Source: Parcubacteria group bacterium Gr01-1014_31 (lineage in GTDB: Bacteria; Patescibacteriota; Patescibacteriia; Buchananbacterales; GWA2-38-13). Taken from it: a stretch of 64,000 nt of DNA. The stretch is taken from contig VMFR01000002.1 in the NCBI GenBank assembly GCA_007376135.1, forward strand, positions 221,870 to 285,869. The letters are read 5' to 3'. The first letter of the stretch is position 1. Every line of letters begins with the position of its first letter. Shown here piece by piece: positions 1,876 to 46,665 of the stretch. Below the pieces are notes generated by a model. That model had not been told where the DNA came from. It did no database searches and saw nothing but the letters and a program-made list of their open reading frames with translations. The translations under genes and the position numbers were made by a program.

Positions 1876-2981
1876 TGGTTGAAGCGTAACGTGCCGAGAA
1901 GGTCGCTGTACACGGCTGTTGGCAGCGTCGGATTTTGCGCCACCACGTAGAACACCGACCGGCCGGGATTGGCGCGCAGGTCGGTCACGATATGCCGCGC
2001 GTTTCTCCACGCTGGCTGGTACGGAAAATCCGGCACTTCCGGTTTTTTCTCAAGGTCGTAGCGGATGAGGTCGTAGCCGTTGATCTGGCCATCCTTGGTT
2101 TGGTGGATGGTGACCGTATCGAGCGTGAGGAAGGTATCGGCGGTGAACGTACGGATAAACACGTTGGAACGCGCGCGGGCAATACCCTTTCCGGTGAGCG
2201 TAAAAAGATTGAGCGATTGGATCTGCGGCACGTACTCCACGGCCCAGCCGGCGGGCAGCTGAAAACTCATGCCGTCGAACGTCGGGTGCGGGGCGGGCGT
2301 ACCATTGGCGCCGTAGCGGATCTCGCGGGCGGGTGGTAGCACATCCAATCCTTTCGCGAGGAAGAAATCCGTCGGGTTCAGATAGTCGCCCAGCGCTGCT
2401 TCAGTTTGGGCATAGCCAGCCAGTTTTTCTCCGTCGCCATCCCATAAATGAAAGTGGAGGTGCTTGCGCTCGCCGTCGGTTTCCGAAGATTTGTGGTCGC
2501 CGAGTATTGCGATCTGCTCGCCCGCCTTTACCTTGGTGCCCGTCGCTCTGGCGGAGTTCAGGTCCAGGTGGCCATAGAGGGCGGAAACCGTTCTTCCCGC
2601 CACCGTGTGGCGGATGATGAGCATGCCGCCGTAGCCATTCACCCGCCGCGCGGCAACCACCTCGCCGTCGGCGATGGCAAAGACCGGCACGTCTTTGGAA
2701 ATGTCCGCGTACTCAATATCGTCGCCCGTATGGTAGCCGCGGAAGCGGTCCTGTACATACTGGCCGTAGACTTTGAAGGTGCGCCGCTCGCGATAGCCGG
2801 CGATGGGCAGGACGACCGCGGTGCTGGGGATGGGCGAGGGTTGTGGCGTTGCGGTCGGCTGCAATGCAGGGGTTGCCGACGGTCCGGGGGTGACGGTTGG
2901 CGAAACGACCGTCTGCCGATTTGCCGGCACGCAACCGGCGGTAAAGATAACGATGAGGGCGGCAAGTATTATTTTTTTCAT
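1872..2981 (-). CDS. M23 family metallopeptidase, lipoprotein (signal peptide with lipobox TAGC)
   Basis: N-term MKKIILAALIVIFTAGC; M23 motifs YHTGDD (HxxxD) and HLHFHLW (HxH); Pro/Thr-rich linker. Confidence 0.85.
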   Translation of the reverse strand: MKKIILAALIVIFTAGCVPANRQTVVSPTVTPGPSATPALQPTATPQPSPIPSTAVVLPIAGYRERRTFKVYGQYVQDRFRGYHTGDDIEYADISKDVPVFAIADGEVVAARRVNGYGGMLIIRHTVAGRTVSALYGHLDLNSARATGTKVKAGEQIAILGDHKSSETDGERKHLHFHLWDGDGEKLAGYAQTEAALGDYLNPTDFFLAKGLDVLPPAREIRYGANGTPAPHPTFDGMSFQLPAGWAVEYVPQIQSLNLFTLTGKGIARARSNVFIRTFTADTFLTLDTVTIHQTKDGQINGYDLIRYDLEKKPEVPDFPYQPAWRNARHIVTDLRANPGRSVFYVVAQNPTLPTAVYSDLLGTLRFNQ

Positions 2982-5866: not shown

Positions 5867-5899
5867 AAGAGCGCCCGCCGGCGCTCTTTCCTTTTTACC
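5867..5899 (+). terminator. rho-independent terminator (AAGAGCGCC-cgcc-GGCGCTCTT + T-rich tail)
   Basis: perfect 9-bp stem then TTCCTTTTTACC. Confidence 0.7.
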
Positions 5900-5928: not shown

Positions 5929-7179
5929 ATGCAAACTTTTGTCCGCAAGAATCCGCTCGCCGTCATCTTTTTGACGGTTTTTGTTGACCTACTGGGGTAC
6001 GGCATCCTTATTCCGGTGGTGCCGCTGCTGCTGACCGACCCGGTCTCGCCGTACTACCTGTTGCCGGCCGGCTGGTCGGTCGGGCAGGGCTATTTTTTGT
6101 TGGGCGTGCTGCTCGCGACCTACCCGTTGGGGCAATTTTTTGCCGCTCCCATCCTGGGTCAATTGTCCGACCAGTTCGGCCGCAAGAGAATCCTTGCCGT
6201 GTCGCTGGCCGGCACGTGTCTGGGCTATGTGCTCTTCGCGGTCGGGGTCGTTTTGCACAACATACCCTTGCTGTTTGCGTCGCGCCTGCTGGACGGGTTG
6301 ACGGGCGGTAATTTCGCCGTCGCGATGGCGTCCATAGCCGATGTCAGCAAACCCGAGCACCGCGCCAAGAACTTCGGGCTCATCGGCGCGGCGTTCGGCC
6401 TCGGGTTCATCCTCGGGCCGTACTTGGGCGGCAAGCTGTCCGACCCGAATGTTCTCGTCTGGTTTTCCGCCTCGACGCCATTCTGGTTTGCCGCCGGTTT
6501 GAGCCTGCTCAACATCATCTCCATTCTTGCGTTCTTTCCCGAGACCCACCAGACGCGCGCTCCCTGGTCGGCCTTGGATTGGGGAAAGTCGGTGAAGAAT
6601 ATTTTTGCCGCGTTCAAAATACCGGGCGTGCAACTGCTGTTTGCAACGACGTTCCTCATCAACGCCGGTTTCACGTTCTTCATCACCTTCTTCAGCGTGT
6701 TTATGATCAAGCGGTTCGGGTTCCAGCAGGGCGAGATCGGGGATTTTTTCTCGTACATCGGCCTGTGGATCGTCATTACACAGGGAATCATCGTGCGGCA
6801 GCTCGCCGGTCGTTTCCCCGAGGCAAGCATTCTGAAGTTCAGCATTCCGGTGCTTGGCGTGGCGGTCCTGCTGCACTTTTTGCCGAACGGGTGGTCCGGG
6901 CTGCTGCTCGTTGCCCCGGTGCTGGCGGTTGCCAACGGACTGACCCAGGCCAATCTTTCCGCGCTCATCAGCCGTTCGGTGGGGCCCGAGGTCCAAGGCG
7001 AGGTAATGGGCATTACGTCCAGTTTGGCGGCGGTGGCGCAAACCGTCCCGCCGCTGCTGTCTGGGGTCATCGCCGCGGCGCTGTCCCCGGCCGCGCCCAT
7101 TGCGGTCGGCGCCCTGGTGCTGCTCCTGGCGGGTGTGCTGTTTACCCTGCACTACCGCCCCGCCGCGGTATCAACTTAA
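5929..7179 (+). CDS. MFS transporter (drug:H+ antiporter-like)
   Basis: 12 predicted TMs; MFS motif A GQLSDQFGRKRIL between TM2-3. Confidence 0.85.
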   Translation: MQTFVRKNPLAVIFLTVFVDLLGYGILIPVVPLLLTDPVSPYYLLPAGWSVGQGYFLLGVLLATYPLGQFFAAPILGQLSDQFGRKRILAVSLAGTCLGYVLFAVGVVLHNIPLLFASRLLDGLTGGNFAVAMASIADVSKPEHRAKNFGLIGAAFGLGFILGPYLGGKLSDPNVLVWFSASTPFWFAAGLSLLNIISILAFFPETHQTRAPWSALDWGKSVKNIFAAFKIPGVQLLFATTFLINAGFTFFITFFSVFMIKRFGFQQGEIGDFFSYIGLWIVITQGIIVRQLAGRFPEASILKFSIPVLGVAVLLHFLPNGWSGLLLVAPVLAVANGLTQANLSALISRSVGPEVQGEVMGITSSLAAVAQTVPPLLSGVIAAALSPAAPIAVGALVLLLAGVLFTLHYRPAAVST

Positions 7180-7307: not shown

Positions 7308-7713
7308 AAAAAAGGGGGAGGATGGGGGTGAGGACCATCCTCCCGAAACGAGAAAAGGAGTGAACCGAAAGGACGGAGCGCGTCAGGGGACGGTTTCAGC
7401 AACCGTAATGGTTTCCTCGATGACGAGGATACCTTCGACGGACGTGCCGTTGGTGGGCGGCGGGCCAGGGCCGGCCGCAGCATTTGCATTGGGTGATACA
7501 TCCACGATGTATCCACAGCGTTCTCATATATAGGCAAACCCCCAGTCATGGGTGAACATCATCCACCCTCGGCATTTGATACACCACATCGGGCATCACC
7601 TCCTCGGGTGTGATTGTCAATGAAGCGAAAAATAGACGCCAATCGACTGTTTCCATTGTATAACCAACACCGCCGGTCGGGAACGCCGGCGGTGTCAAGA
7701 GGTTGGTCTGTCG

Positions 7714-13776: not shown

Positions 13777-13850
13777 CCAAAAAGGCATACCCATAGGTAT
13801 GCCCCGACCAACTCCAGTCCACCGCCCCCCTGCCAGACGGCAGTGGGGCA

Positions 13851-14068
13851 TTTTTTTATTTTCCCGCCATCGCAGCAAGGGAGTTTGCGACCGCCGGCGA
13901 GATATGCGGGAAAATAACCCCGCACCAATTTTGCCGTACAATCCACCTCGTGTTTTGAACTATGGTAGCATTGTCCCCCCAGTCGCGAAGCGCGCGTGCG
14001 AATAGCACTCTCCATTATGGGCGCAGCGCTTCGCCGGGACGTGAGTTCCAAAATTGGGTGCTGGGGTT
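13851..14068. repeat. intergenic repeat element copy B
   Basis: see 408..640; preceded by hairpin plus T-run terminator (CTGCC-agac-GGCAG..T7) of desaturase gene. Confidence 0.6.
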
Positions 14069-26735: not shown

Positions 26736-29090
26736 TTACCGGACCTCGTCGCCCATTGGATAGTAGTCCAGGTGCACGCGGCTGACATTGACGACGTGCG
26801 ACCGCGGCAGCGACAGTGCATCGTAGGCCGCCGGATCGGCGATGCGGCGCTTCACACCATTGTCCAGCAGATAGACGTCCGTTTCGCCGTCAACCTTCAC
26901 CAGCCGGACCTGGGGGTAGCTTTCCATGTCGATCTCGTTGATGACGACGACATTGCCCCAGTAGTTGCCCGGGTAGGAAACGAACACCGTAGGCGAAGGG
27001 AGGCCCAACTTTAGCCAGCGTTCCTGCGGGCGCTTGTAGAGGTAGTGGATCTGCGGGTCCGCGGGAGTTCGCACCAGCCGCGCGTCCGGGTAGCGGTCCA
27101 GCGTCGCCTGCGACACCTCGCGGACGTCGGGCCATTGGTAGCCGTAGGCGGCAAAGGAGGCCGGGCCGGCGATGAGGTGCTTTTGGCCGTTCAAAATGGC
27201 GTAGACGTCCGGGGTGCCTGCCACGCGCAGCAGCGCGGAAGCCTGGGTGTACAGCAGGTTGGAGCTGCCTAGCACCTGGCCACTGGACGGGTACGACGGC
27301 GCGATGGTCACGGTCGTTGGCCCAGACTTCGGCAGCCAGCGCCCGACGCCCTCGGTGTACAGCAGTTTGATCTCGCTGTCGGTCAGCGCGCGGCCAAAGA
27401 TGGTCAGCTCGTCCAGCGTGATGTCGCCGTTGACGATGCCGAACGACGCATTCTGCGTCCCGCCGACCAGGAACGCGTCGAGCAAACCGGCTGGCGTGGC
27501 CGACAGGGTCGCTGCTTCGCGCTTCAATCCGCGGTAAGCGTGGGTTTGGGCCGGCTCGCCATTGACGTACACTTTGCCGGCGCCCCCGTCGAAATCCCAC
27601 GAGACGGTCATGAACATCCACTGGCCGGCGGCTGGCGCTGCATTTTGTACGAAGTAGCGATAGTCCACGTCGTCGGCATCTTCCAGGCCGAAGTAGAGCT
27701 TGTTCTTCTCATTGAGGTAGACGTTGGCGATGCCCTTGGCGCCGGTTTTGCCGATGGTCAGGTATTTATCGTTGACCTGTTGGTAGGCGGCGTTATTGGT
27801 GAACAGTTGATGGTGGATGTCGTCGCTGTTGTCCCAGTTGGGTTTGAACCAGAACGCAATGGTGCCCGCGGACGGGTTGGCGTTGTCGCGCCCGTCGTAC
27901 TGCACGCGCGTTACGTCCGTCAGGGTCACACCTTCACTGCGGCGGCCGCCAGAGTTTTCCGTCACCGACGGCACCCCCAGGGCGATGCCCAGCGGGTCGC
28001 CAAGCGAAAAGTCCCCGTGCAGCCCCTGGTCGTAGCTGGCGTAGAACATCAGGTCATGGCGCGACGTCACGCCCAGGACGCGGCCGCTATTGTCGTAGGC
28101 GGCCGGCGTGCCGGCGCGATCGCGCGTCACGAAGCTCAACGCCGTCGTTTTCGCGTTGGCGGAAAACAGGTCCTTGGATTCCACTGAGAAATAGTAGGTG
28201 GTGTTGGGCTGCAGGCCGGTGATCTGCGCGGTGTGCGTGTAGTCGCGCGGTCCGCTGATGGTGATGGTACGGCCAAGCTTGTCGGTCGGGCCCCAGCGCA
28301 CCACGCCATTGGCCAGGGTGGTCGAGCGCCAGGAAATTTCCGCGGACGTATCCGCCAGCCCCGGGTCATTCCCGGACACCGGACGGATGGCGGTCAGCTC
28401 CAGCACGGGACGGTTCGCCGCGCTGGTCGTGCGGAAGCTCAACCCCTCGGATACGGCAGTGTTGCCGCCGCTGTCCTTGGATTTGACGCGGAAGTGGTAC
28501 GTCGTCAGGGGCTTCAGTCCCGTGATGAGCATTTCATGCACGGTGACGCGGGCGCCGTCCTGTTTTTTGCTGCCGTAGTTGGAGGTCAGGCCGTACTCCA
28601 CCAGACTGTCGGTGGCCTCATCGGTGCGCCACTGGACAAGCACCTCCGTGCCGCCCTGGTAGGGAACGGCAACGTCGGTCAAACCGGGCGCGTCGCGGTC
28701 AACGGCCTTGGTCGTTTTGAAGGTCTGGTCAAAACTGGCCGTTTCCTGGCCGGGGCTCGAGGAGATGACCCGGAAGTGGTAGGTGGTCTCCCCCCTCAGG
28801 CCGTTGAGGGTGACCTGGTGGCTGGAACGCTGTTCGCCCTCGTAGCCGACGGTGGAACCGTGCGCGGACGTCAGGCCGTACTCCACGCGTCCGGTCGAGG
28901 GGATGTTGGTCGACCAGCTGATAGTCGCCGTTGAGTCCAGGGCGCTGACCCGGATGTTCGCAACAATGAGCGCCAGTTGCCCATGGACAACAAAAGGAGC
29001 TACGGCAAACAGGATTGCCGCGCTCAATGAGATAATGAAATTCGGGGTGATTCGCTCCATACCATGAACTATAGGACGTAAAAAAGGCAT
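26736..29090 (-). CDS. secreted surface protein: 3x fibronectin type III (purple-acid-phosphatase-N-like) + LamG/concanavalin-like domain + tandem C-terminal repeat domains
   Basis: repeated TxxISWxT..VEYGLT..LxxLxPxTTYHFRV units; LamG-type ...LDELTIFGRALTDSEI; two about 60-aa repeats ending YPxxRLV; N-term signal/TM. Confidence 0.7.
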   Translation of the reverse strand: MPFLRPIVHGMERITPNFIISLSAAILFAVAPFVVHGQLALIVANIRVSALDSTATISWSTNIPSTGRVEYGLTSAHGSTVGYEGEQRSSHQVTLNGLRGETTYHFRVISSSPGQETASFDQTFKTTKAVDRDAPGLTDVAVPYQGGTEVLVQWRTDEATDSLVEYGLTSNYGSKKQDGARVTVHEMLITGLKPLTTYHFRVKSKDSGGNTAVSEGLSFRTTSAANRPVLELTAIRPVSGNDPGLADTSAEISWRSTTLANGVVRWGPTDKLGRTITISGPRDYTHTAQITGLQPNTTYYFSVESKDLFSANAKTTALSFVTRDRAGTPAAYDNSGRVLGVTSRHDLMFYASYDQGLHGDFSLGDPLGIALGVPSVTENSGGRRSEGVTLTDVTRVQYDGRDNANPSAGTIAFWFKPNWDNSDDIHHQLFTNNAAYQQVNDKYLTIGKTGAKGIANVYLNEKNKLYFGLEDADDVDYRYFVQNAAPAAGQWMFMTVSWDFDGGAGKVYVNGEPAQTHAYRGLKREAATLSATPAGLLDAFLVGGTQNASFGIVNGDITLDELTIFGRALTDSEIKLLYTEGVGRWLPKSGPTTVTIAPSYPSSGQVLGSSNLLYTQASALLRVAGTPDVYAILNGQKHLIAGPASFAAYGYQWPDVREVSQATLDRYPDARLVRTPADPQIHYLYKRPQERWLKLGLPSPTVFVSYPGNYWGNVVVINEIDMESYPQVRLVKVDGETDVYLLDNGVKRRIADPAAYDALSLPRSHVVNVSRVHLDYYPMGDEVR

Positions 29091-40538: not shown

Positions 40539-40549
40539 AGATGAGACAA

Positions 40550-40612
40550 TTGACTTTTGACCATTGACCGTTGACTTTTTCCGACGGTCAAATGTCAATG
40601 GTCAACGGTTAA
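40550..40612. promoter_or_regulatory. palindromic heptad array: 4x TTGAC(nn) ... centre ... 4x (nn)GTCAA/GTTAA, immediately upstream of nfo
   Basis: TTGACttTTGACcaTTGACcgTTGACtttttccgacgGTCAAatGTCAAtgGTCAAcgGTTAA. Confidence 0.6.
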
Positions 40613-40726
40613 TTGTTTACGACGGTTTTCTTGAGGTACTCCGTCACCTTACGGGAGGTGAGGCTTTGGTTACAACGATTGTAGCATGGGTGGTGGGGCT
40701 TGCCACGGTGGGGATTTCCTCGAGCT

Positions 40727-41458
40727 TTAGCGTTGGGGCAGCGTGTTCCACAAGGCGTCAAACATGGCCGTTTGCACTTGGGTCAGTTCGTCGCTCTCCA
40801 CGACCAGAGCAACTAAATCTTTGCGGAATGAAAACATCGCGATTTTATTGCCCCAGATGAAAATGTTGCCATGGTAGCGGTAACTTTCCGGGATGATTTT
40901 CACCACCCGCAGGTGTTGGGGCCCAAGCTGCTGGCGCTCCCGAGCTTTTGGCGATTCCCGTAAGATGACTTGTACGGAAATTTTTTTTTGCACACGTTTT
41001 TTTACGAATTCGGGAAAAATTTTATCCAGGGTCGTAAAAAGATCCTCCGCGGCGCCAAACGAGCGCACCTCGCGCGCCTCTGCCAGTATTTCCTCCAAAA
41101 TCAGCTTCATCCCCAGTGTGCCTTGGTAGAACCGCACGGTCGGGCGGTGCTTGGCGGCGCCGTAGAGCGCGCGCAGTTCCGGAAAAGCCTGCTCCAATAG
41201 CTCCACCTTATCTTTGGCCAGGACAATGACTTTCTGGGGATCCTCGGCGCCGTAGTATTGGATATTTTTCTTTTTGTACGTGGAAGCAAAACCCTGCTGG
41301 CACAGACGTTCCAATAGTTCATAGCATGTTGAGCGGGGTAATCCGGATTTTCGGCTGATTTTTTGTACCGACGCCGAACCCAATTCCAAACAAGCCAAGT
41401 ACACCTTGGCTTGTTTTTCCGTTAGCCCGAAGTCTTTGAGCGTTTGTTCGAGGTTCAT
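40727..41458 (-). CDS. TrmB family transcriptional regulator
   Basis: N-terminal HTH LGLTEKQAKVYLACLELGSASVQKISRKSGLPRSTCYELLERL + TrmB C-terminal domain. Confidence 0.8.
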   Translation of the reverse strand: MNLEQTLKDFGLTEKQAKVYLACLELGSASVQKISRKSGLPRSTCYELLERLCQQGFASTYKKKNIQYYGAEDPQKVIVLAKDKVELLEQAFPELRALYGAAKHRPTVRFYQGTLGMKLILEEILAEAREVRSFGAAEDLFTTLDKIFPEFVKKRVQKKISVQVILRESPKARERQQLGPQHLRVVKIIPESYRYHGNIFIWGNKIAMFSFRKDLVALVVESDELTQVQTAMFDALWNTLPQR

Positions 41459-41500
41459 AAGAGTGTAGTATCTTTACTCATCTTTTTCCCCCTCTCCCTA

Positions 41501-41523
41501 CCCTCTCCCACCGAGGGAGAGGG
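41501..41523. repeat. hairpin repeat CCCTCTCCC-accga-GGGAGAGGG (family also at about 44595-44620 and 45318-45340; variant TACCCTC-gtgg-TGAGGGTA at about 41718-41740)
   Basis: three perfect 9-bp-stem copies seen directly. Confidence 0.65.
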
Positions 41524-41775
41524 GACAGGACAAAAGCCAATGTGCGCCTTGAATCCGCTCGGGACGATTGAACATAATACTTTTGCATCAAATTGAGTCA
41601 ATTCTGTCGGTAAAACCGACAACATTTATCTAACTTAATAATAGCTTACTTTAGCAATTTTGTCAAGTATTAACATTATATATTGACGGTTTTATAGACT
41701 AATTTACCTAATTATGGTTTACTTCACCGTTACCCTCGTGGTGAGGGTAGGCACATTAACAAGGAGGAACAATTC

Positions 41776-42168
41776 ATGGCAGAGCCTAAGGCAGCCGAGT
41801 TTACTGTTGGCGGTCTCGTTTTCGCGCTAATCCCCTTCCTTAAGGAAGGGGAAATCCATATCGACTATGACGAGCTGCTAAAGCGCGCCAAAAAGCTTAG
41901 AGCCAGCGGCTCAAAAGGCTGCCGGTTCATTCGTGATCATCTGGAAGAAATTCCTGCTGAATTTCGTTGGGAGTTTGATCTGATTTTTCCAAGCTACCGC
42001 CGCCCCGGGTTCCCGTCGCGGTTGCAAGCGTACTTCGCCGAATTCTTTTGCGGGAACAGCGGTACTTGGGTCCAAGCTTGGCGTCCGCTCAGATCCGACT
42101 ATTTCGACTATGGCGGGCACGATCGACTGGTGCGCCGGGTCAGAATGAAAAAAGGGGGAAACAAATAG
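41776..42168 (+). CDS. small protein, paralog family member 1 (130 aa)
   Basis: shares F-T-[IV]-[GA]-G..[VY]-[GA]-L..[PF] ... EEIP.EFR.EF.L[IV]F ... W.Q.W ... [YH]DRLVR.V with 43788.., 44164.., 44733..; SD AAGGAGG. Confidence 0.6.
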   Translation: MAEPKAAEFTVGGLVFALIPFLKEGEIHIDYDELLKRAKKLRASGSKGCRFIRDHLEEIPAEFRWEFDLIFPSYRRPGFPSRLQAYFAEFFCGNSGTWVQAWRPLRSDYFDYGGHDRLVRRVRMKKGGNK

Positions 42169-42175
42169 TTAATTT

Positions 42176-42204
42176 GGGGGCGACGGCAATATTTGATCGC
42201 CCCC
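42176..42204 (+). repeat. conserved leader hairpin GGGGGCGA..TCGCCCCC (copies at 43629-43673 and 44543-44572) followed by TCCTACCAATGGCGACAAG
   Basis: three copies aligned by eye. Confidence 0.6.
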
Positions 42205-42285
42205 TCCTACCAATGGCGACAAGTAGAGCTTATCGTCAGCGGCGGGAGAAAATGTAAGTAGCCCTTTGACCAAAAAGGAGAATAC

Positions 42286-43110
42286 ATGGGAGAGACGGAA
42301 CAAGAGACACCGCCTCCGGTGCTGTCCACGCCGGTGGTGTACGGCCCTGTGGCGTCGCGGCGGTTGGGACGGTCGCTGGGCATCAATCTATTTACCCCGG
42401 CAAGTAAAGTCTGTACGTTCGATTGCGCGTACTGCCAGTGCGGTGCCGCCCAGCCGACGGCCACGGGCATCCTGTCGCTTGCCCGTATCAAGCGGGGACT
42501 ATCCGCCAGTTTCCGGAAATTGGTTCGGTTTGGAACGCCGATCCAGCACCTCACGTTTGCCGGTAACGGCGAGCCGACCATCCACCCTGATTTTCCCGAA
42601 ATCGTCGCCTACGTCCTGCGGTTACGCGACCGACTCCTGCCCGGAATACCGACCGCAATTTTCACGAATGGATCAGCACTCGGTACGTCGGCAATTCGGT
42701 CAGCGATCGCAAAATTGGATCGGCGGTTCCTGAAGTTGGACGCCGGTGATCCCCAAACGGCGCGGCGCGTCAATCGGAGCAAGAACTTTGCCGCGATCGT
42801 GCATTCCCTGGCGGCTGCGGCGAAGGAGATGCCGGTGGAAATTTCCACCGCCGTCATCACCGCACCTGCGAGGTTCGCCAACCTCAATTCTCTCCGAAAC
42901 CTTGGTTACGTTAGGGTTGTTCAGCGGATCAACCCGCAGCGGCTGTACCTCTACAGCATTGATCGGCCGCCCGCGGTGTCAGTCATTGAGCAGGCGTCGC
43001 CAGCAGTGTTGCTGCAGCTTGCCACCTACCTTCGGTCGCGACTCGATGTGCCAGTCCTGGTGCTCCGGTCACGGCGGACCAGGCCGTGGGCGCAGTGGAT
43101 TTGGGAGTAA
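42286..43110 (+). CDS. radical SAM protein (COG0731-like)
   Basis: CTFDCAYCQCG (Cx3Cx2C) preceded by VYGPVASRRLGRSLGINL. Confidence 0.8.
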   Translation: MGETEQETPPPVLSTPVVYGPVASRRLGRSLGINLFTPASKVCTFDCAYCQCGAAQPTATGILSLARIKRGLSASFRKLVRFGTPIQHLTFAGNGEPTIHPDFPEIVAYVLRLRDRLLPGIPTAIFTNGSALGTSAIRSAIAKLDRRFLKLDAGDPQTARRVNRSKNFAAIVHSLAAAAKEMPVEISTAVITAPARFANLNSLRNLGYVRVVQRINPQRLYLYSIDRPPAVSVIEQASPAVLLQLATYLRSRLDVPVLVLRSRRTRPWAQWIWE

Positions 43111-43127
43111 GGGAAAGGAGAAACCGC

Positions 43128-43550
43128 ATGGTGTGTGTTTCCCACGTCGCCATTTTCGTGAACAATCTCGATTTGATGGAGCGTTTCTACCAGGCGGTCT
43201 TCGGGATGTGGACGGTGTGGAAGGCGCCAAACGAGAAAGCCTACCTCACGACGGGCAACCGCGACATCTTCGCCCTACTGCACAAACCCGGCTACCGGCC
43301 GCGCCGTTACGATCTGGCGGGCATCCTCCAGGATCCGCGAGTGACGCCGAATTTCCCCCACTTTGGGGCGGTGGTTGAAACCCTTGACCATTTCACCGAA
43401 CTGATGGAACGGCTCGAGGCCACGGGAATCACCATCTACGGCCCCAAGGTCAGCCGCGATACCACCCGTTCATTCTACTTCCACGATCCGGAAGGAAACG
43501 CGGTCCAGGTTGTCTGTCCGACGCATGAGTACTTCCAACGCTCGAGGTAA
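43128..43550 (+). CDS. VOC (glyoxalase/bleomycin-resistance/dioxygenase) family protein
   Basis: HVAIFVNNLD...FYFHDPEGNAVQV; SD AAAGGAG; start trimmed. Confidence 0.75.
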   Translation: MVCVSHVAIFVNNLDLMERFYQAVFGMWTVWKAPNEKAYLTTGNRDIFALLHKPGYRPRRYDLAGILQDPRVTPNFPHFGAVVETLDHFTELMERLEATGITIYGPKVSRDTTRSFYFHDPEGNAVQVVCPTHEYFQRSR

Positions 43551-43787
43551 TTCACGGCGCACGTTCATCGTGGCCATCGTGGACAAGATCTTTCACGAGT
43601 AAACCCGGAATACCGGGTATGTACCATCGGGGGACGGCCGACGACACGAACGCGTGGCGATCACCGTCCCCCTCCTACCAATGGCGACAAGCTGTATTTG
43701 TCGTCAGCGGCGGGAGAAATGGATTCTCCCGTGCCCAAAGCCCGGCGTGAAAGGGTACGCACGTTGACAAGAAAGAAAGGAAAAAGC

Positions 43788-44138
43788 ATGGGTGATTCAA
43801 AAATTGTCACATTCACCCTCGGTAACCGCGTCTATGGGCTGGTACCCATTTTCCAGGAGGCCGAGACCTACGTCAGCGATAACACGATGGTGGAGCGCGC
43901 CCAAGAGCTTGGCGCTAACCTGGACGAAGAAGACGGTCAATTCTTCATGGAACACCGGGCAGAAATTCCCGCGGAGGTTCAGAGGTCTTTACTGGTTTTC
44001 ACGGGTTGGCGCCATCCGTCTAACCCGCAGAGCTTCGCCTACATGGGCTGGGTCGGCGATAAGTGGTACCAGGCATGGTATTTGCCAGAGCTCGTCGAGT
44101 GGTGCAAGTACGATCGGCTGGTGCACTGCATCTCGTAA
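43788..44138 (+). CDS. small protein, paralog family member 2 (116 aa); possible N-terminal extension from ATG 43719
   Basis: about 50% identical to member 3 over full length. Confidence 0.65.
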   Translation: MGDSKIVTFTLGNRVYGLVPIFQEAETYVSDNTMVERAQELGANLDEEDGQFFMEHRAEIPAEVQRSLLVFTGWRHPSNPQSFAYMGWVGDKWYQAWYLPELVEWCKYDRLVHCIS

Positions 44139-44163
44139 TCCTTTCTGAATAAGGAGAAGTGTC

Positions 44164-44520
44164 ATGGAGCAACCCGTGTGTCAGCAGTTCACCATTGCCG
44201 GCCACACCTACGGGCTCATGTCCTTCCATGAGGAAGGCGAAGGTTTGGTCAATGGGGACACGATGGTGGAGCGTGCCTTGAAGCGTGACGCCAACCTGGG
44301 CGAAGAGGACGGCGCCTTAATTTTGGAGCACCAGGACGAAATTCCCCAGAAATTCCGGGGGGAATTCTACCTGGTCTTCGCGGCCTGGCATCATCCGTCC
44401 CGCCCGCAGCGCGTCGCGTGTCTCCGCTGGAACGGCTTCCGCTGGTGCCAGGACTGGTACTGGCTCGGCAGCAGCTGGGGCGGGTATGATCGGCTGGTGC
44501 GTAAAGTCAGTATGAAATAA
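44164..44520 (+). CDS. small protein, paralog family member 3 (118 aa)
   Basis: SD AAGGAGA; Trp-rich C-terminal half conserved with member 2. Confidence 0.65.
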   Translation: MEQPVCQQFTIAGHTYGLMSFHEEGEGLVNGDTMVERALKRDANLGEEDGALILEHQDEIPQKFRGEFYLVFAAWHHPSRPQRVACLRWNGFRWCQDWYWLGSSWGGYDRLVRKVSMK

Positions 44521-44732
44521 AGGGGAGATGAATAGTTCATTTGGGGGCGACAGCAAATACTTGATCGCCCCCTCCTACCATTGCGTTGCAATACCCAATT
44601 TTCCCTCTCCCCTTGATGGGAGAGGGTAGGGTGAGGGTGGAAATGCAGCGCAGCGGCGGGAGGAAATGGATTTTCCCGCGCCAAATGCCCGGCGCAAGTG
44701 AGCAAGTTCTTTGACTAAGGAAGGAGAAAGTT

Positions 44733-45233
44733 GTGTCCCAGTTCGATGTATTGCGGGACGCGCTCTACAGCGCTCTTCATAGTACGGACATTCCTTTCCG
44801 CGAAGACAAAGCTGAAGAAGGTTGGATCCTTGTGGAGGATGTTCCCGAGTTCGAGGTTCCCGTCGATTGTGAATCCGTTCCATTTTTCGAGAGTGGACGG
44901 CGAAGTATCTCGGGCAAGGAGATACTCCGGCGAGCCAAGGAGAATGGGGCGAACTTCGGCCAGCGGCATGCTGAACGCATCTTGTTGCACCAGCCAGGGA
45001 TTCTTGAAAGGATCTCCCGGGCGTGGAGGCGACCGCCGTGGTGGAGGAGATGGTTGGCGGCCGACCAACTACTCATTTTCCCCGGAACGATCTGGTACGT
45101 CATCGGAAGGGGCTACATGATTCCGTGCCTCTTCCGAGATGGCCCGAGTTGGCGTCTCACGTTCCAAGATCTTTCAGGGATCTATATTTCGAACTGTCGT
45201 CTGCTTCGTCCACGTTCCTGCGCCAAGCCATAG
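44733..45233 (+). CDS. small protein, divergent paralog family member 4 (166 aa, GTG start)
   Basis: ILRRAKENGANFGQRHAERILLHQPGI resembles MVERALKRDANLGEEDGALILEHQDEI; SD AAGGAAGGAG. Confidence 0.5.
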   Translation: MSQFDVLRDALYSALHSTDIPFREDKAEEGWILVEDVPEFEVPVDCESVPFFESGRRSISGKEILRRAKENGANFGQRHAERILLHQPGILERISRAWRRPPWWRRWLAADQLLIFPGTIWYVIGRGYMIPCLFRDGPSWRLTFQDLSGIYISNCRLLRPRSCAKP

Positions 45234-45378
45234 CGCAGTACGTGCATCCGGTCAATACATAAACCCTCGATTTTCCGAACAAGGAGATCGAGGGTTTTTC
45301 TTTTTGTAGAATTTTCGGCCCTCACCCTCTCCCTTGAGGGAGAGGGTATGAAATTATAACTCCCTAAGAAGCTACCAG

Positions 45379-46665
45379 CTACAAGCTGGTGATGGTGATT
45401 TTGAGGTACTCCATGACCTTGCGCGACACCAGGACGTTTTCGACGTAGGAGCGAAATTCCGGGCTCTTGGTTCGTTCGCGGATTTCCGGGTTGCCCTCGT
45501 AGGCGGAAAATTCGCGGGCCACGGCCGCATCCACCTCGGCGTCGGAGGCCGTTACCTGCTGCTGTTTGGCAATGAGGCGCGAGATGAGCGCGCCTTTGAC
45601 ACGCTTGATGGCCTGCGGCGTGAGATCCAGGAGAAGCTGCGCGCGGTCCTTTTTGATGCTGGCCAGATACTCGTCAAAGCCGATGCCTTGGTTGCCGACG
45701 TTGTGTTCAAGCTCCGCAGCCATGGTCTTGGTTTCGGTCGTGACCAGCAGGTCGGGGATGTCGGAGAATTTGCTCTTGGCGATGAGTTCGTCCATGACGG
45801 CGCCTTCCAGCCGGTCGTCTTCGCGCTTGGCGGCTTCCTGCAGGAGGCTGGCGCGCAGTTTTTCCTTCAGGTCGGAAAGCGATGCAAATTTACCCAGGCT
45901 TTTGGCGAACTCGTCGGTCAGTTCGGGCGGCGTCAGTTCGTAAACCCCCAGCACTTTGACGCGGAATTCCACGGTTTTGCCGGCGACCGCGCGGTTGTGG
46001 TAGTCGTCGGGCAGCTTGAGTGGGAAGGCTTTTTCCTGATTGGCGGCGAGCCCGATGACCTGCTCTTCAAATCCCGGCAAAAAGCGGTTTTCGCCCAGGA
46101 CCAGCGGCAGCCGTTCGGATTGGCCATGCTCCACCGGTACGCTTTCGTGGAAGGTATCCAATCGAATCTCCACCTTGTCCTTGGCGCGCGCGGGGCGCGT
46201 GACTAGCACTTCCGTGCGGCGCATCGTCCGCAGGTCTTCCAGGGTCTTTGTCACATCGGCATCCGCGACCGTTGGCGCACGGCGCTCCACCTTGATGCGC
46301 GAAAGGTCGCTCAACTGCACCTCGGGCAGTAGGTTGACGGTGGCGCGGTAGACGACCGGGTTGCCGGGCGCGAGCTTGGTGATTCCGATCTGCGGCGAGC
46401 CGACGGATTCCAATTTGGCTTGCGCGAGCGCTTGCGGGTAGGTGCGTTTGACCGCCGCTTCTAAGGCCTCTTCCCACAGCTTGGCCTCGCCGATCTTTTC
46501 TACCATCACTTCATATGGAGCTTTGCCCGCCCGGAACCCGGGGATGGTTAGGTGCGCGGAAACAACGGCTGCGGCGCGATGGAGGAACGGTGCGTACTCG
46601 TCCGCGGTGAGCGTGACGGTCAGCTCCGCCTGCCCGCGCGGCAGTTTTTTTGCAGCGACGTCCAT
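45379..46665 (-). CDS. tig: trigger factor
   Basis: IPGFRAGKAPYEV motif, PPIase and C-terminal domains, 428 aa. Confidence 0.9.
   Translation of the reverse strand: MDVAAKKLPRGQAELTVTLTADEYAPFLHRAAAVVSAHLTIPGFRAGKAPYEVMVEKIGEAKLWEEALEAAVKRTYPQALAQAKLESVGSPQIGITKLAPGNPVVYRATVNLLPEVQLSDLSRIKVERRAPTVADADVTKTLEDLRTMRRTEVLVTRPARAKDKVEIRLDTFHESVPVEHGQSERLPLVLGENRFLPGFEEQVIGLAANQEKAFPLKLPDDYHNRAVAGKTVEFRVKVLGVYELTPPELTDEFAKSLGKFASLSDLKEKLRASLLQEAAKREDDRLEGAVMDELIAKSKFSDIPDLLVTTETKTMAAELEHNVGNQGIGFDEYLASIKKDRAQLLLDLTPQAIKRVKGALISRLIAKQQQVTASDAEVDAAVAREFSAYEGNPEIRERTKSPEFRSYVENVLVSRKVMEYLKITITSL

Follow-up and report, generated by a model that had tools for sequence, protein, structure and literature searches.

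The DNA that we analysed (the window) is a stretch of 64,000 nucleotides from contig VMFR01000002.1 of Parcubacteria group bacterium Gr01-1014_31. Within it, four related genes (m1–m4) stand on the + strand as an array together with three related spacers of 115–215 nt (leaders 1–3) and two enzyme genes. The array begins with m1 (41776–42168; a divergent family member of 130 aa), which is followed by leader 1 (42169–42285), a gene for a 274-aa radical SAM protein (42286–43110), a gene for a 140-aa VOC/glyoxalase-fold enzyme (43128–43550), leader 2 (43625–43787), m2 (43788–44138; 116 aa, counted from an ATG with its own SD), m3 (44164–44520; 118 aa, the most typical family member), leader 3 (44521–44732) and m4 (44733–45233; a divergent member of 166 aa with a GTG start). 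A TrmB-family transcription regulator (PF01978, E 1.8e-15) is encoded divergently from the array on the − strand (40727–41458). Downstream of m4, an intrinsic terminator with a 15-bp stem and a T tract (45261–45297) is the sole strong one on the + strand of the region; the genes m1, radical SAM, VOC, m2, m3 and m4 probably form one operon that ends there, and the whole block is now probably controlled by TrmB as a single unit. As the preliminary description of this locus had remarked, the 5′ end of the region is AT-rich (GC content 0.40 compared with 0.61), and GC-rich, REP-like hairpins of the CCCTCTCCC/GGGAGAGGG type recur: copy A (CCCTCTCCC TA CCCTCTCCC .. GGGAGAGGG) at 41489–41527, copy B inside the core of leader 3 at 44603–44640 and copy C at 45313–45348. 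The 64 kb contain three copies each of this hairpin and of the leader, all inside 41489–45348. A 17-nt palindrome, TGTCGGTAAAACCGACA, lies at 41605–41621 in the AT-rich intergenic region between the TrmB gene and m1.

The four small proteins had been described as a same-strand family, and this proved correct: the open reading frames are present at the lengths given, and their paralogy is supported by sequence identity (43% between m3 and m2 and 39% between m3 and m1), by a family HMM and by tblastn. m4, which carries a 46-aa N-terminal extension and one internal insertion, is divergent, yet it passes the family HMM at E < 1e-5 and matches family genes of another locus (L001) by tblastn at 2e-8. 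A scan of the 64 kb with the family HMM returned m1–m4 as the only four family ORFs, and m3 is a 100% match to a hypothetical protein of Parcubacteria Gr01-1014_31. By profile search, the family comprises 1174 cluster representatives (50% identity clusters) at E < 1e-3, many of them with 2–4 tandem domains; its domains are ∼110 aa long and occur mostly in Parcubacteria/CPR. No match to m1–m4 was found in Pfam, NCBIfam, PHROGs or PADLOC, and because the family has no Pfam model, it is not the known housekeeping DUF that the preliminary description had allowed for; sequence similarity to Pfam DUF1566 or FGE-sulfatase was likewise not detectable. The AlphaFold (AF2) model of m3 has a C-type-lectin fold at a pLDDT of 94.7, and the family domain is predicted to be a minimal C-type-lectin fold carrying a variable region (VR) at its C terminus. 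The VR is the C-terminal ∼40 residues, with the motif W.HP..P..VA...W.G..W.Q.W.WL...W....RLVR, and is the same W-rich C terminus that had been noted from the sequence at the outset.

The nature of the family emerges from a related Parcubacteria locus (L026), in which two family genes lie beside a bAvd gene (PF22296), a reverse transcriptase (RT) gene (PF00078) and a 122-nt template repeat (TR) that constitutes a third copy of the 3′ ends of both family genes. All mismatches between the TR and the VRs fall at TR adenines (17/17 for VR1 and 18/18 for VR2). Because the TR, Avd and RT occur together there and the mismatches are confined to adenines, the family is a variable-protein family of a diversity-generating retroelement (DGR), a link that the preliminary description had not considered. 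At this locus, the Avd/RT pair copies the TR into both family genes at their 3′ ends, making errors only at adenines, and the ligand-binding face of the family protein may be rewritten by such copying. The family-wide column entropy was 3.46 bits at columns corresponding to AAY codons of the TR, compared with 1.66 bits at codons without A at positions 1 and 2 and 1.91 bits in the rest of the domain. The fraction of NNY codons in the VR was 0.93 at L026, 0.79 in m3 and 0.56–0.68 in m1, m2 and m4, against ∼0.55 elsewhere in the genes. An RT was within reach in 1 of 10 distinct family loci, several of which are on short contigs.

The window itself holds none of this machinery. tblastn with the RT and Avd proteins of L026 across the window at E ≤ 10 gave noise only, a further ∼5 kb of sequence to the right of the window contained no RT or Avd, and there was no TR-like repeat within the 64 kb, and hence no cognate TR for m1–m4. 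Because RT, Avd and TR are all missing from the window, m1–m4 would be remote or retired DGR targets: either a DGR at another place in the genome diversifies them, or they have been retired and now drift by ordinary mutation. The VR-equivalent segments of m1 (∼41995–42135), m2 (∼44007–44129) and m3 (44386–44502) differ from one another at many positions, which cannot all be TR adenines, so that no single common TR is possible. In m3, 23 of 29 VR codons are NNY (0.79), compared with 40 of 74 (0.54) elsewhere in the gene, whereas m1, m2 and m4 have no such excess. Judged by its codons, m3 thus appears to have retained a partial DGR signature; for m1, m2 and m4, retirement is more likely than remote targeting.

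We then turn to the three leaders, each of which had been described as a shared structured element preceding its gene. That three related spacers exist at these places was borne out: nhmmer and a covariance model each found exactly three copies in the window, and the core motifs occur 3 times against ∼0.2–1.2 expected by chance. The details did not all hold. The GGGGGCGAC..GATCGCCCCC hairpin is confined to leaders 1 and 3, leader 2 having a longer hairpin with another stem (GGGGGACGG..CCGTCCCCC); TCCTACCAATGGCGACAAG is found only in leaders 1 and 2, its place in leader 3 being taken by a 60-nt insertion; and the supposed SD plus ATG is not a conserved start: in leader 1 a stop codon follows the ATG at once (ATG-TAA), in leader 3 an ORF of 11 codons begins with it, and in leader 2 it shares the frame of m2. 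The true gene starts each have an AAGGAG-type SD of their own. Leader 1 consists of hairpin P1 (42176–42204) and a P2/P3 core (42205–42247) and is truncated after GGGAGAAAATG. In leader 2, the longer hairpin P1′ (43629–43672) is followed by the core (43668–43722) and two more hairpins up to the SD of m2, and in leader 3, P1 (44543–44572) is followed by a core split by REP-like copy B and then by GGGAGGAAATGG and two hairpins up to the SD of m4.

Comparison of m1 with m3 showed ∼50–60% identity in the coding sequence but 70–93% identity from the IMH-like end (the last 60 nt of m1) through P1 of leaders 1 and 3; conservation is much stronger in P1 and the IMH-like gene end than in the coding part. 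P1 has a GC-rich stem of 8–9 bp and a loop of 6–13 nt and begins 7 nt (m1) or 22 nt (m3) past the stop codon. A hairpin directly 3′ of the stop codon was also found at array-terminal family genes of L001, L019, L024, L026 and L023, and the IMH plus hairpin stretch is conserved between the genomes of L023 and L026. No hairpin of the P1 type follows m2 or m4, and neither a family gene nor a remnant of one precedes the hairpin of leader 2. We propose that the three leaders derive from a single spacer between genes of the family array, which was duplicated along with these genes; the earlier view of a duplicated module is upheld to this extent, the genes being true paralogs and the spacers homologous. 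The first element of the leader would then be a GC-rich hairpin just past the end of a VR-encoding gene, in the place of the recognition hairpin of DGR targets. Such targets have a GC-rich hairpin 4–34 bp past the VR, with a 7–10-bp stem and a 4-nt GRNA loop (Guo et al. 2011, PMC3240598). P1 agrees with this hairpin/cruciform in stem and position for m1 and m3, and the stem sequence is changeable with pairing kept, as in leader 2. It differs in its loop of more than 4 nt, in the position of one of the three copies, which has no VR before it, and in the further conserved hairpins beyond P1. We count against the DGR reading the lack of a TR and RT for the window genes, the impossibility of a single TR for m1–m3, the presence of an RT at just 1 of the 10 family loci, the mismatching P1 loop, the placement of leader 2 and the hairpinless m2 and m4. 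It is conceivable, if quite improbable, that the IMH-like end, P1 and the P2/P3 core form an extended multi-hairpin module by which a remote CPR DGR recognizes its targets, acting in trans on an array that sits within a metabolic operon under TrmB control; the stand-alone copy before m2 would then mark a place at which whole variable-protein genes are shuffled by cDNA or recombination events. In that case, diversification by CPR DGRs would extend from residues to the architecture of gene arrays, by way of a cis-element unlike the canonical 4-nt-loop hairpin.

The leaders could instead be a new cis-regulatory RNA (a riboswitch or translational switch), in which P2 (UCCUACC/GGCGGGA) and a downstream hairpin (GGGAGAA/UUCUCCC) compete to control the next gene. 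Their predicted folds are more stable than those of shuffled sequence (z of −2.9, −2.9 and −5.5), leaders 1 and 3 are predicted to share the same P1/P2/P3 architecture, the insertion of leader 3 is tolerated in an apical loop, and the P1 stem of leader 2 is kept through symmetric changes. However, the leaders had no match in Rfam at E ≤ 10 beyond a chance one to a miRNA or whalefall-1 on the REP-like hairpin, 0 of 18 consensus pairs were compensatory among the three sequences available for comparison, and searches of 18 further loci and the remainder of the window with the covariance model and nhmmer yielded no copy. Furthermore, the downstream genes are unrelated (radical SAM versus family genes), the 3′ half is missing from leader 1, and leaders 1 and 3 run unbroken from the 3′ end of the upstream gene, as would be expected of a 3′ element more than of a 5′ leader. 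We therefore consider a regulatory RNA unlikely. Still less probable is that the leaders and CCCTCTCCC hairpins are REP- or MITE-like repeats spread by a Y1/RAYT-type transposase and functionless for the adjacent genes. The GC-rich palindromic elements do resemble REPs, one copy is an insertion inside leader 3, and at another locus (L009) an IS200-like Y1 transposase adjoins the TrmB ortholog; but the region contains no transposase, the leader has neither terminal inverted repeats nor target duplications, and its only three copies in 64 kb all lie within 2.6 kb, in one orientation, beside family genes.

The preliminary description had also suggested, as one possible reading, radical SAM-dependent modification or sensing coupled to the small proteins; on this model, the enzyme would act as in a RiPP or maturase system, and every module would bring a regulatory leader of its own. 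The identities of the two enzyme genes were confirmed by PF04055 and PF00903 (E 1.1e-12), in this genome they adjoin the family genes on the same strand, probably as part of a single operon, and leader 1 lies directly before the radical SAM gene. However, the radical SAM and VOC genes were found in 0 of 10 distinct family loci from other genomes, the family being scattered elsewhere without the radical SAM gene, an outcome that the preliminary description had listed as refuting, and conversely neither a family gene nor a leader occurred near radical SAM orthologs (∼59% identity) in either of two distinct contexts (L009; L010–L012), including directly upstream of the ortholog in L009 and L010, where no such leader was present. 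The protein has only the core domain (PF04055 at residues 40–189 of 274, with CxxxCxxC at residues 45–52) and no SPASM or RRE domain (SPASM-family models ≤22 bits), and its >5400 homologs lie mostly outside the context of family arrays. The small proteins are lectin-like domains of 110 aa with a confidently predicted fold rather than precursor peptides, and compared with RiPP-like radical SAM cassettes, the window lacks conserved co-occurrence, a SPASM/twitch or RRE domain and a short leader-core precursor. The coupling model, which we hold to be highly improbable, is largely refuted by the absent co-occurrence, and the radical SAM angle that gave the locus its unusual look is not upheld. The radical SAM protein is of the COG0731-like family, labelled 'wyosine synthetase' by JGI; its scores against TYW1, MoaA and viperin are far below cut-offs, and the VOC enzyme gave weak Fos-type matches only, also far below cut-offs. 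The window protein is of the same type as the stand-alone COG0731-type radical SAM proteins, without a conserved link to the small-protein family, and its pairing with TrmB recurs in L009, where the orthologs of the two genes stand directly side by side in divergent orientation. The TGTCGGTAAAACCGACA palindrome recurs at 5868–5884 of L009, immediately upstream of the TrmB ortholog there; in the window, it is a probable operator through which TrmB would act on the operon promoter. The radical SAM gene is a passenger or an original operon gene and not a partner of the family; TrmB and radical SAM are probably an older divergent pair around which family genes were added by local duplication or recombination. 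Overall, we think it likely that the family consists of DGR variable proteins, that the window copies are remote or retired targets with co-duplicated spacers as leaders and that neither the radical SAM nor the VOC gene is linked to them.

Variable proteins of DGRs that adopt a C-type-lectin fold are already known, and the m1–m4 family is a further instance. Like Mtd (Bordetella phage BPP-1), TvpA (Treponema denticola), AvpA (Nanoarchaeota) and TaqVP (Thermus aquaticus), the family has a C-type-lectin fold (predicted in its case) with a C-terminal VR, its L026 genes are targeted by TR/Avd/RT, and an IMH-like end and a hairpin follow the VR. It differs from them in its far smaller protein, a bare ∼110-aa domain that is often encoded in tandem gene arrays or fused into proteins with 2–4 domains, in its lack of detectable sequence similarity to them and in the absence of a retroelement from the window. 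The survey of CPR/Patescibacteria cellular DGRs by Paul et al. 2017 reportedly required that the VR adjoin the RT. The same requirement was made in the survey that described 'clade 2' cellular DGRs from CPR/Patescibacteria, the host lineage of the window, whose targets, like the present family, lack transmembrane and other recognizable domains (Roux et al. 2021, PMC8144416). Because the surveys required a VR beside an RT, arrays with no RT for tens of kb would have gone unrecorded. The results provide a function-level assignment for a sizeable CPR family that lacks annotation in the four databases searched: its members are predicted to be binding modules with a minimal C-type-lectin fold that DGR hypermutation has shaped. 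The results also indicate that arrays of DGR-type variable-protein genes persist far from any retroelement, where surveys of RT–VR adjacency miss them. In CPR episymbionts, such arrays may allow the recognition of ligands or hosts to vary.

Six plus-strand genes lie between a minus-strand TrmB-family regulator gene (40727-41458) and the minus-strand trigger factor gene, tig (45379-46665): m1 (41776-42168, 130 aa), a radical SAM gene (42286-43110, PF04055), a VOC gene (43128-43550, PF00903), m2 (43788-44138, 116 aa), m3 (44164-44520, 118 aa), and m4 (44733-45233, 166 aa). The paralogy of the four small genes, proposed in the preliminary description, was borne out: m3 shares 43% identity with m2 and 39% with m1, the divergent m4 passes the family HMM, and the 64 kb contain no family ORFs other than m1-m4. 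The m3 protein matches a hypothetical protein recorded for Parcubacteria group bacterium Gr01-1014_31 at 100% identity. No model in Pfam, NCBIfam, PHROGs, or PADLOC matched m1-m4, and the family HMM had no match among PDB sequences. Among 1.8 billion cluster representatives, a profile search returned 1174 relatives at E<1e-3, many of which have variable N-terminal extensions or carry the ~110-aa domain in 2-4 tandem copies. The AlphaFold model of m3 (74 homologs; pLDDT 94.7) has the topology beta-beta-alpha-alpha-beta-beta-beta-beta. Searches for related loci with a narrow back-translated pattern yielded one locus in the genome collection and three in the metagenome collection. The lone family match among 185,579 species-representative genomes (L014, 1402-1614) lies on a contig binned as 'uncultured Gammaproteobacteria', a binning that may be wrong. 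Overall, representative genome assemblies seem to contain almost no members of the family, which is known mostly from metagenome contigs.

The family is linked to diversity-generating retroelements (DGRs) by L026, a Parcubacteria contig (NYZP01000024.1) with family genes at 6001-6480 and 6599-7141. The last 122 nt of both genes recur in a third copy at 7534-7655 (translated, ..HPDNPENVAYVNWNGNRWVQNWNWLDNDWNDNDRVLRRK), after which come bAvd (PF22296) and a reverse transcriptase (RT; PF00078). This copy differs from the two gene ends by 17 and 18 mismatches, all at adenines of the third copy. Mismatches confined to adenines are the DGR signature, which identifies the third copy as the template repeat (TR) and the W-rich C-terminal segment shared by the family proteins as the variable region (VR). 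In an alignment of 74 family members, entropy is 3.46 bits at the columns of TR AAY codons, compared with 1.66 bits at columns without A in codon positions 1-2 and 1.91 bits in the remaining domain. It follows that the motif W.HPS.PQ...W...W.Q.WY....YDRLV, singled out in the preliminary description, represents the constant scaffold of a DGR VR. The DGR reading of L026 fits published work. Some family proteins, among them P0123 (L013, 2666-4219), P0124, and P0127, are fusions of 2-4 complete lectin-like domains with a VR-like segment in each; the L013 fusion gene has housekeeping surroundings, with no RT within 6 kb.

It had also been suggested that the small proteins, their leaders, and the radical SAM gene form a duplicated module, possibly for radical SAM-dependent modification or sensing. 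The underlying observation holds in part; the radical SAM interpretation is not supported: a radical SAM or VOC gene was present in 0 of 10 distinct family loci from other genomes. Orthologs of the radical SAM gene (~59% identical) are located beside a divergent TrmB gene in L009 and amid housekeeping genes in L010, and both loci lack family genes, VOC genes, and leaders. The protein itself consists of the core domain only and belongs to a family of >5400 homologs; a reading as viperin was rejected because the similarity is generic to the core (39.6 bits against a cut-off of 180). A 17-nt palindrome, TGTCGGTAAAACCGACA (41605-41621; form TGTCGG(T/C)AAAACCGACA), is found upstream of TrmB both in the window and in L009 (5868-5884) and is probably the TrmB operator. 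The promoter-like stretch TTTTGTCAAG adjoins it, and L009 has both elements in the interval separating TrmB from the radical SAM ortholog; m1 is thus placed between the radical SAM gene and a promoter/operator that is older. The gene caller extended the TrmB start of L009 into the palindrome, and an IS200-like Y1 transposase (PF01797) directly adjoins TrmB in that locus. The same locus has its own TR/VR-like pair (1864-1991 and 2354-2481, minus strand; 128 nt, 87.5% identical), located at the 3' end of an unrelated gene of 276 aa. On the coding strand, template adenines account for 13 of the 16 mismatches within this pair.

Because the sole strong plus-strand terminator of the gene block is at 45261-45297 and no promoter-like site was found inside the leaders, the genes from m1 through radical SAM, VOC, m2, and m3 to m4 likely constitute one operon, which would start in the AT-rich region at 41560-41775. 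Just past TrmB, at 40609-40662 on the minus strand, the final 17 codons of tig recur as a relic (counterpart 45379-45432); the relic's product, LTSRKVTEYLKKTVVNN, matches the real trigger factor C-terminus, LVSRKVMEYLKITITSL, at 11 of 17 residues, with the stop codons in register. Direct repeats of the tig 3' end therefore flank the 4.7-kb TrmB-m4 block, the arrangement expected of an island integrated at the 3' end of a gene; no integrase is present. The block has a GC content of 0.55, compared with 0.61 for the window. Between the endonuclease IV gene and this relic is an inverted repeat at 40546-40616 (arms of 30 nt, 83% complementary, separated by 11 nt). Elsewhere in the window, a ~110-nt segment containing a terminator-like hairpin and a T tract occurs twice, 13.4 kb apart (382-493 and 13825-13937; 71-83% identical), and a ~50-nt segment occurs three times within 28170-28807 (spacing ~282-303 nt; 68-72% identical), the latter probably a repeated domain within a coding region.

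The three leaders described before the radical SAM gene, m2, and m4 do exist, and in exactly three copies, although their details are looser than first noted. Both nhmmer and a covariance model placed them at 42166-42290, 43620-43789, and 44533-44736, and neither found a further copy in the window or in 18 loci. The shared first hairpin, P1 (GGGGGCGAC..GATCGCCCCC), holds for leaders 1 and 3, whereas the hairpin of leader 2 is longer and its stem differs. Common to all three are CCCCCTCCTACCA and CAGCGGCGGGAG(A/G)AA, and leaders 2 and 3 share an additional 53 nt at 74% identity. The reported Shine-Dalgarno sequence plus ATG is not a conserved start, because in leader 1 TAA comes right after it, and in leader 3 it opens an ORF of 11 codons. 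The predicted folds are more stable than those of shuffled sequence (z -2.9, -2.9, and -5.5); RNAalifold detected no compensatory pairs in the consensus structure, and no Rfam family matched the leaders in a scan of the region. The m2 frame is open throughout leader 2, as far upstream as the stop codon of VOC (43551-44138), and an in-frame ATG at 43719 would lengthen m2 by 23 residues (MDSPVPKARRERVRTLTRKKGKS); the equivalent frames are closed in leaders 1 and 3. One long palindrome (CCCTCACCC TA CCCTCTCCC loop GGGAGAGGG TA GGGTGAGGG) is present in three partial copies, at 41489-41527, 44603-44640, and 45313-45348, and nowhere else in the 64 kb. Two of these lie on either side of the gene block, and the third forms an insertion in the apical loop of leader 3; all three look like REPs.

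Comparison of m1 with m3 bears on the origin of the leaders. The two coding sequences are ~50-60% identical, and identity is 70-93% from the IMH-like end (GATCGRCTGGTGCG) across the stop codon and P1 up to CCCCCTCCTACCA; thus, the element in leaders 1 and 3 continues the 3' end of the upstream gene. In other genomes, a hairpin distinct from the terminator also directly follows the array-terminal family genes (L001, L019, L023, L024, and L026), and between L023 and L026 the IMH-plus-hairpin stretch is more strongly conserved than the VR. DGR targets require a GC-rich hairpin 4-34 bp past the VR, whose stem sequence is free to vary (PMC3240598). P1 resembles this hairpin in position and stem but differs in its loop, which is 6-13 nt rather than one following the 4-nt GRNA rule. 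Leader 2 sits after VOC and not after a family gene, and a search upstream of it for a decayed family-gene end did no better than with shuffled sequence. In the simplest account, the leader is a spacer from an ancestral family-gene junction, which leader 3 still is, and its copies would have become separated when the array was joined to the radical SAM-VOC pair.

With regard to the present status of the window's copies, tblastn detected no RT or Avd in the window, no TR-like repeat was found there, and RT, Avd, and TR are all absent from the ~5 kb past its right end. Further, the VRs of m1, m2, and m3 diverge too far for one common TR. NNY codon bias is a trace of AAY-templated mutagenesis; the NNY fraction in the VR is 0.93 in L026 and 0.79 in m3, but only 0.56-0.68 in m1, m2, and m4, compared with ~0.55 elsewhere in the genes. 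Overall, the region represents an orphan array of variable proteins of the DGR type, in which we infer m1, m2, and m4 to be retired copies and m3 may be a present or recent target of a remote DGR.
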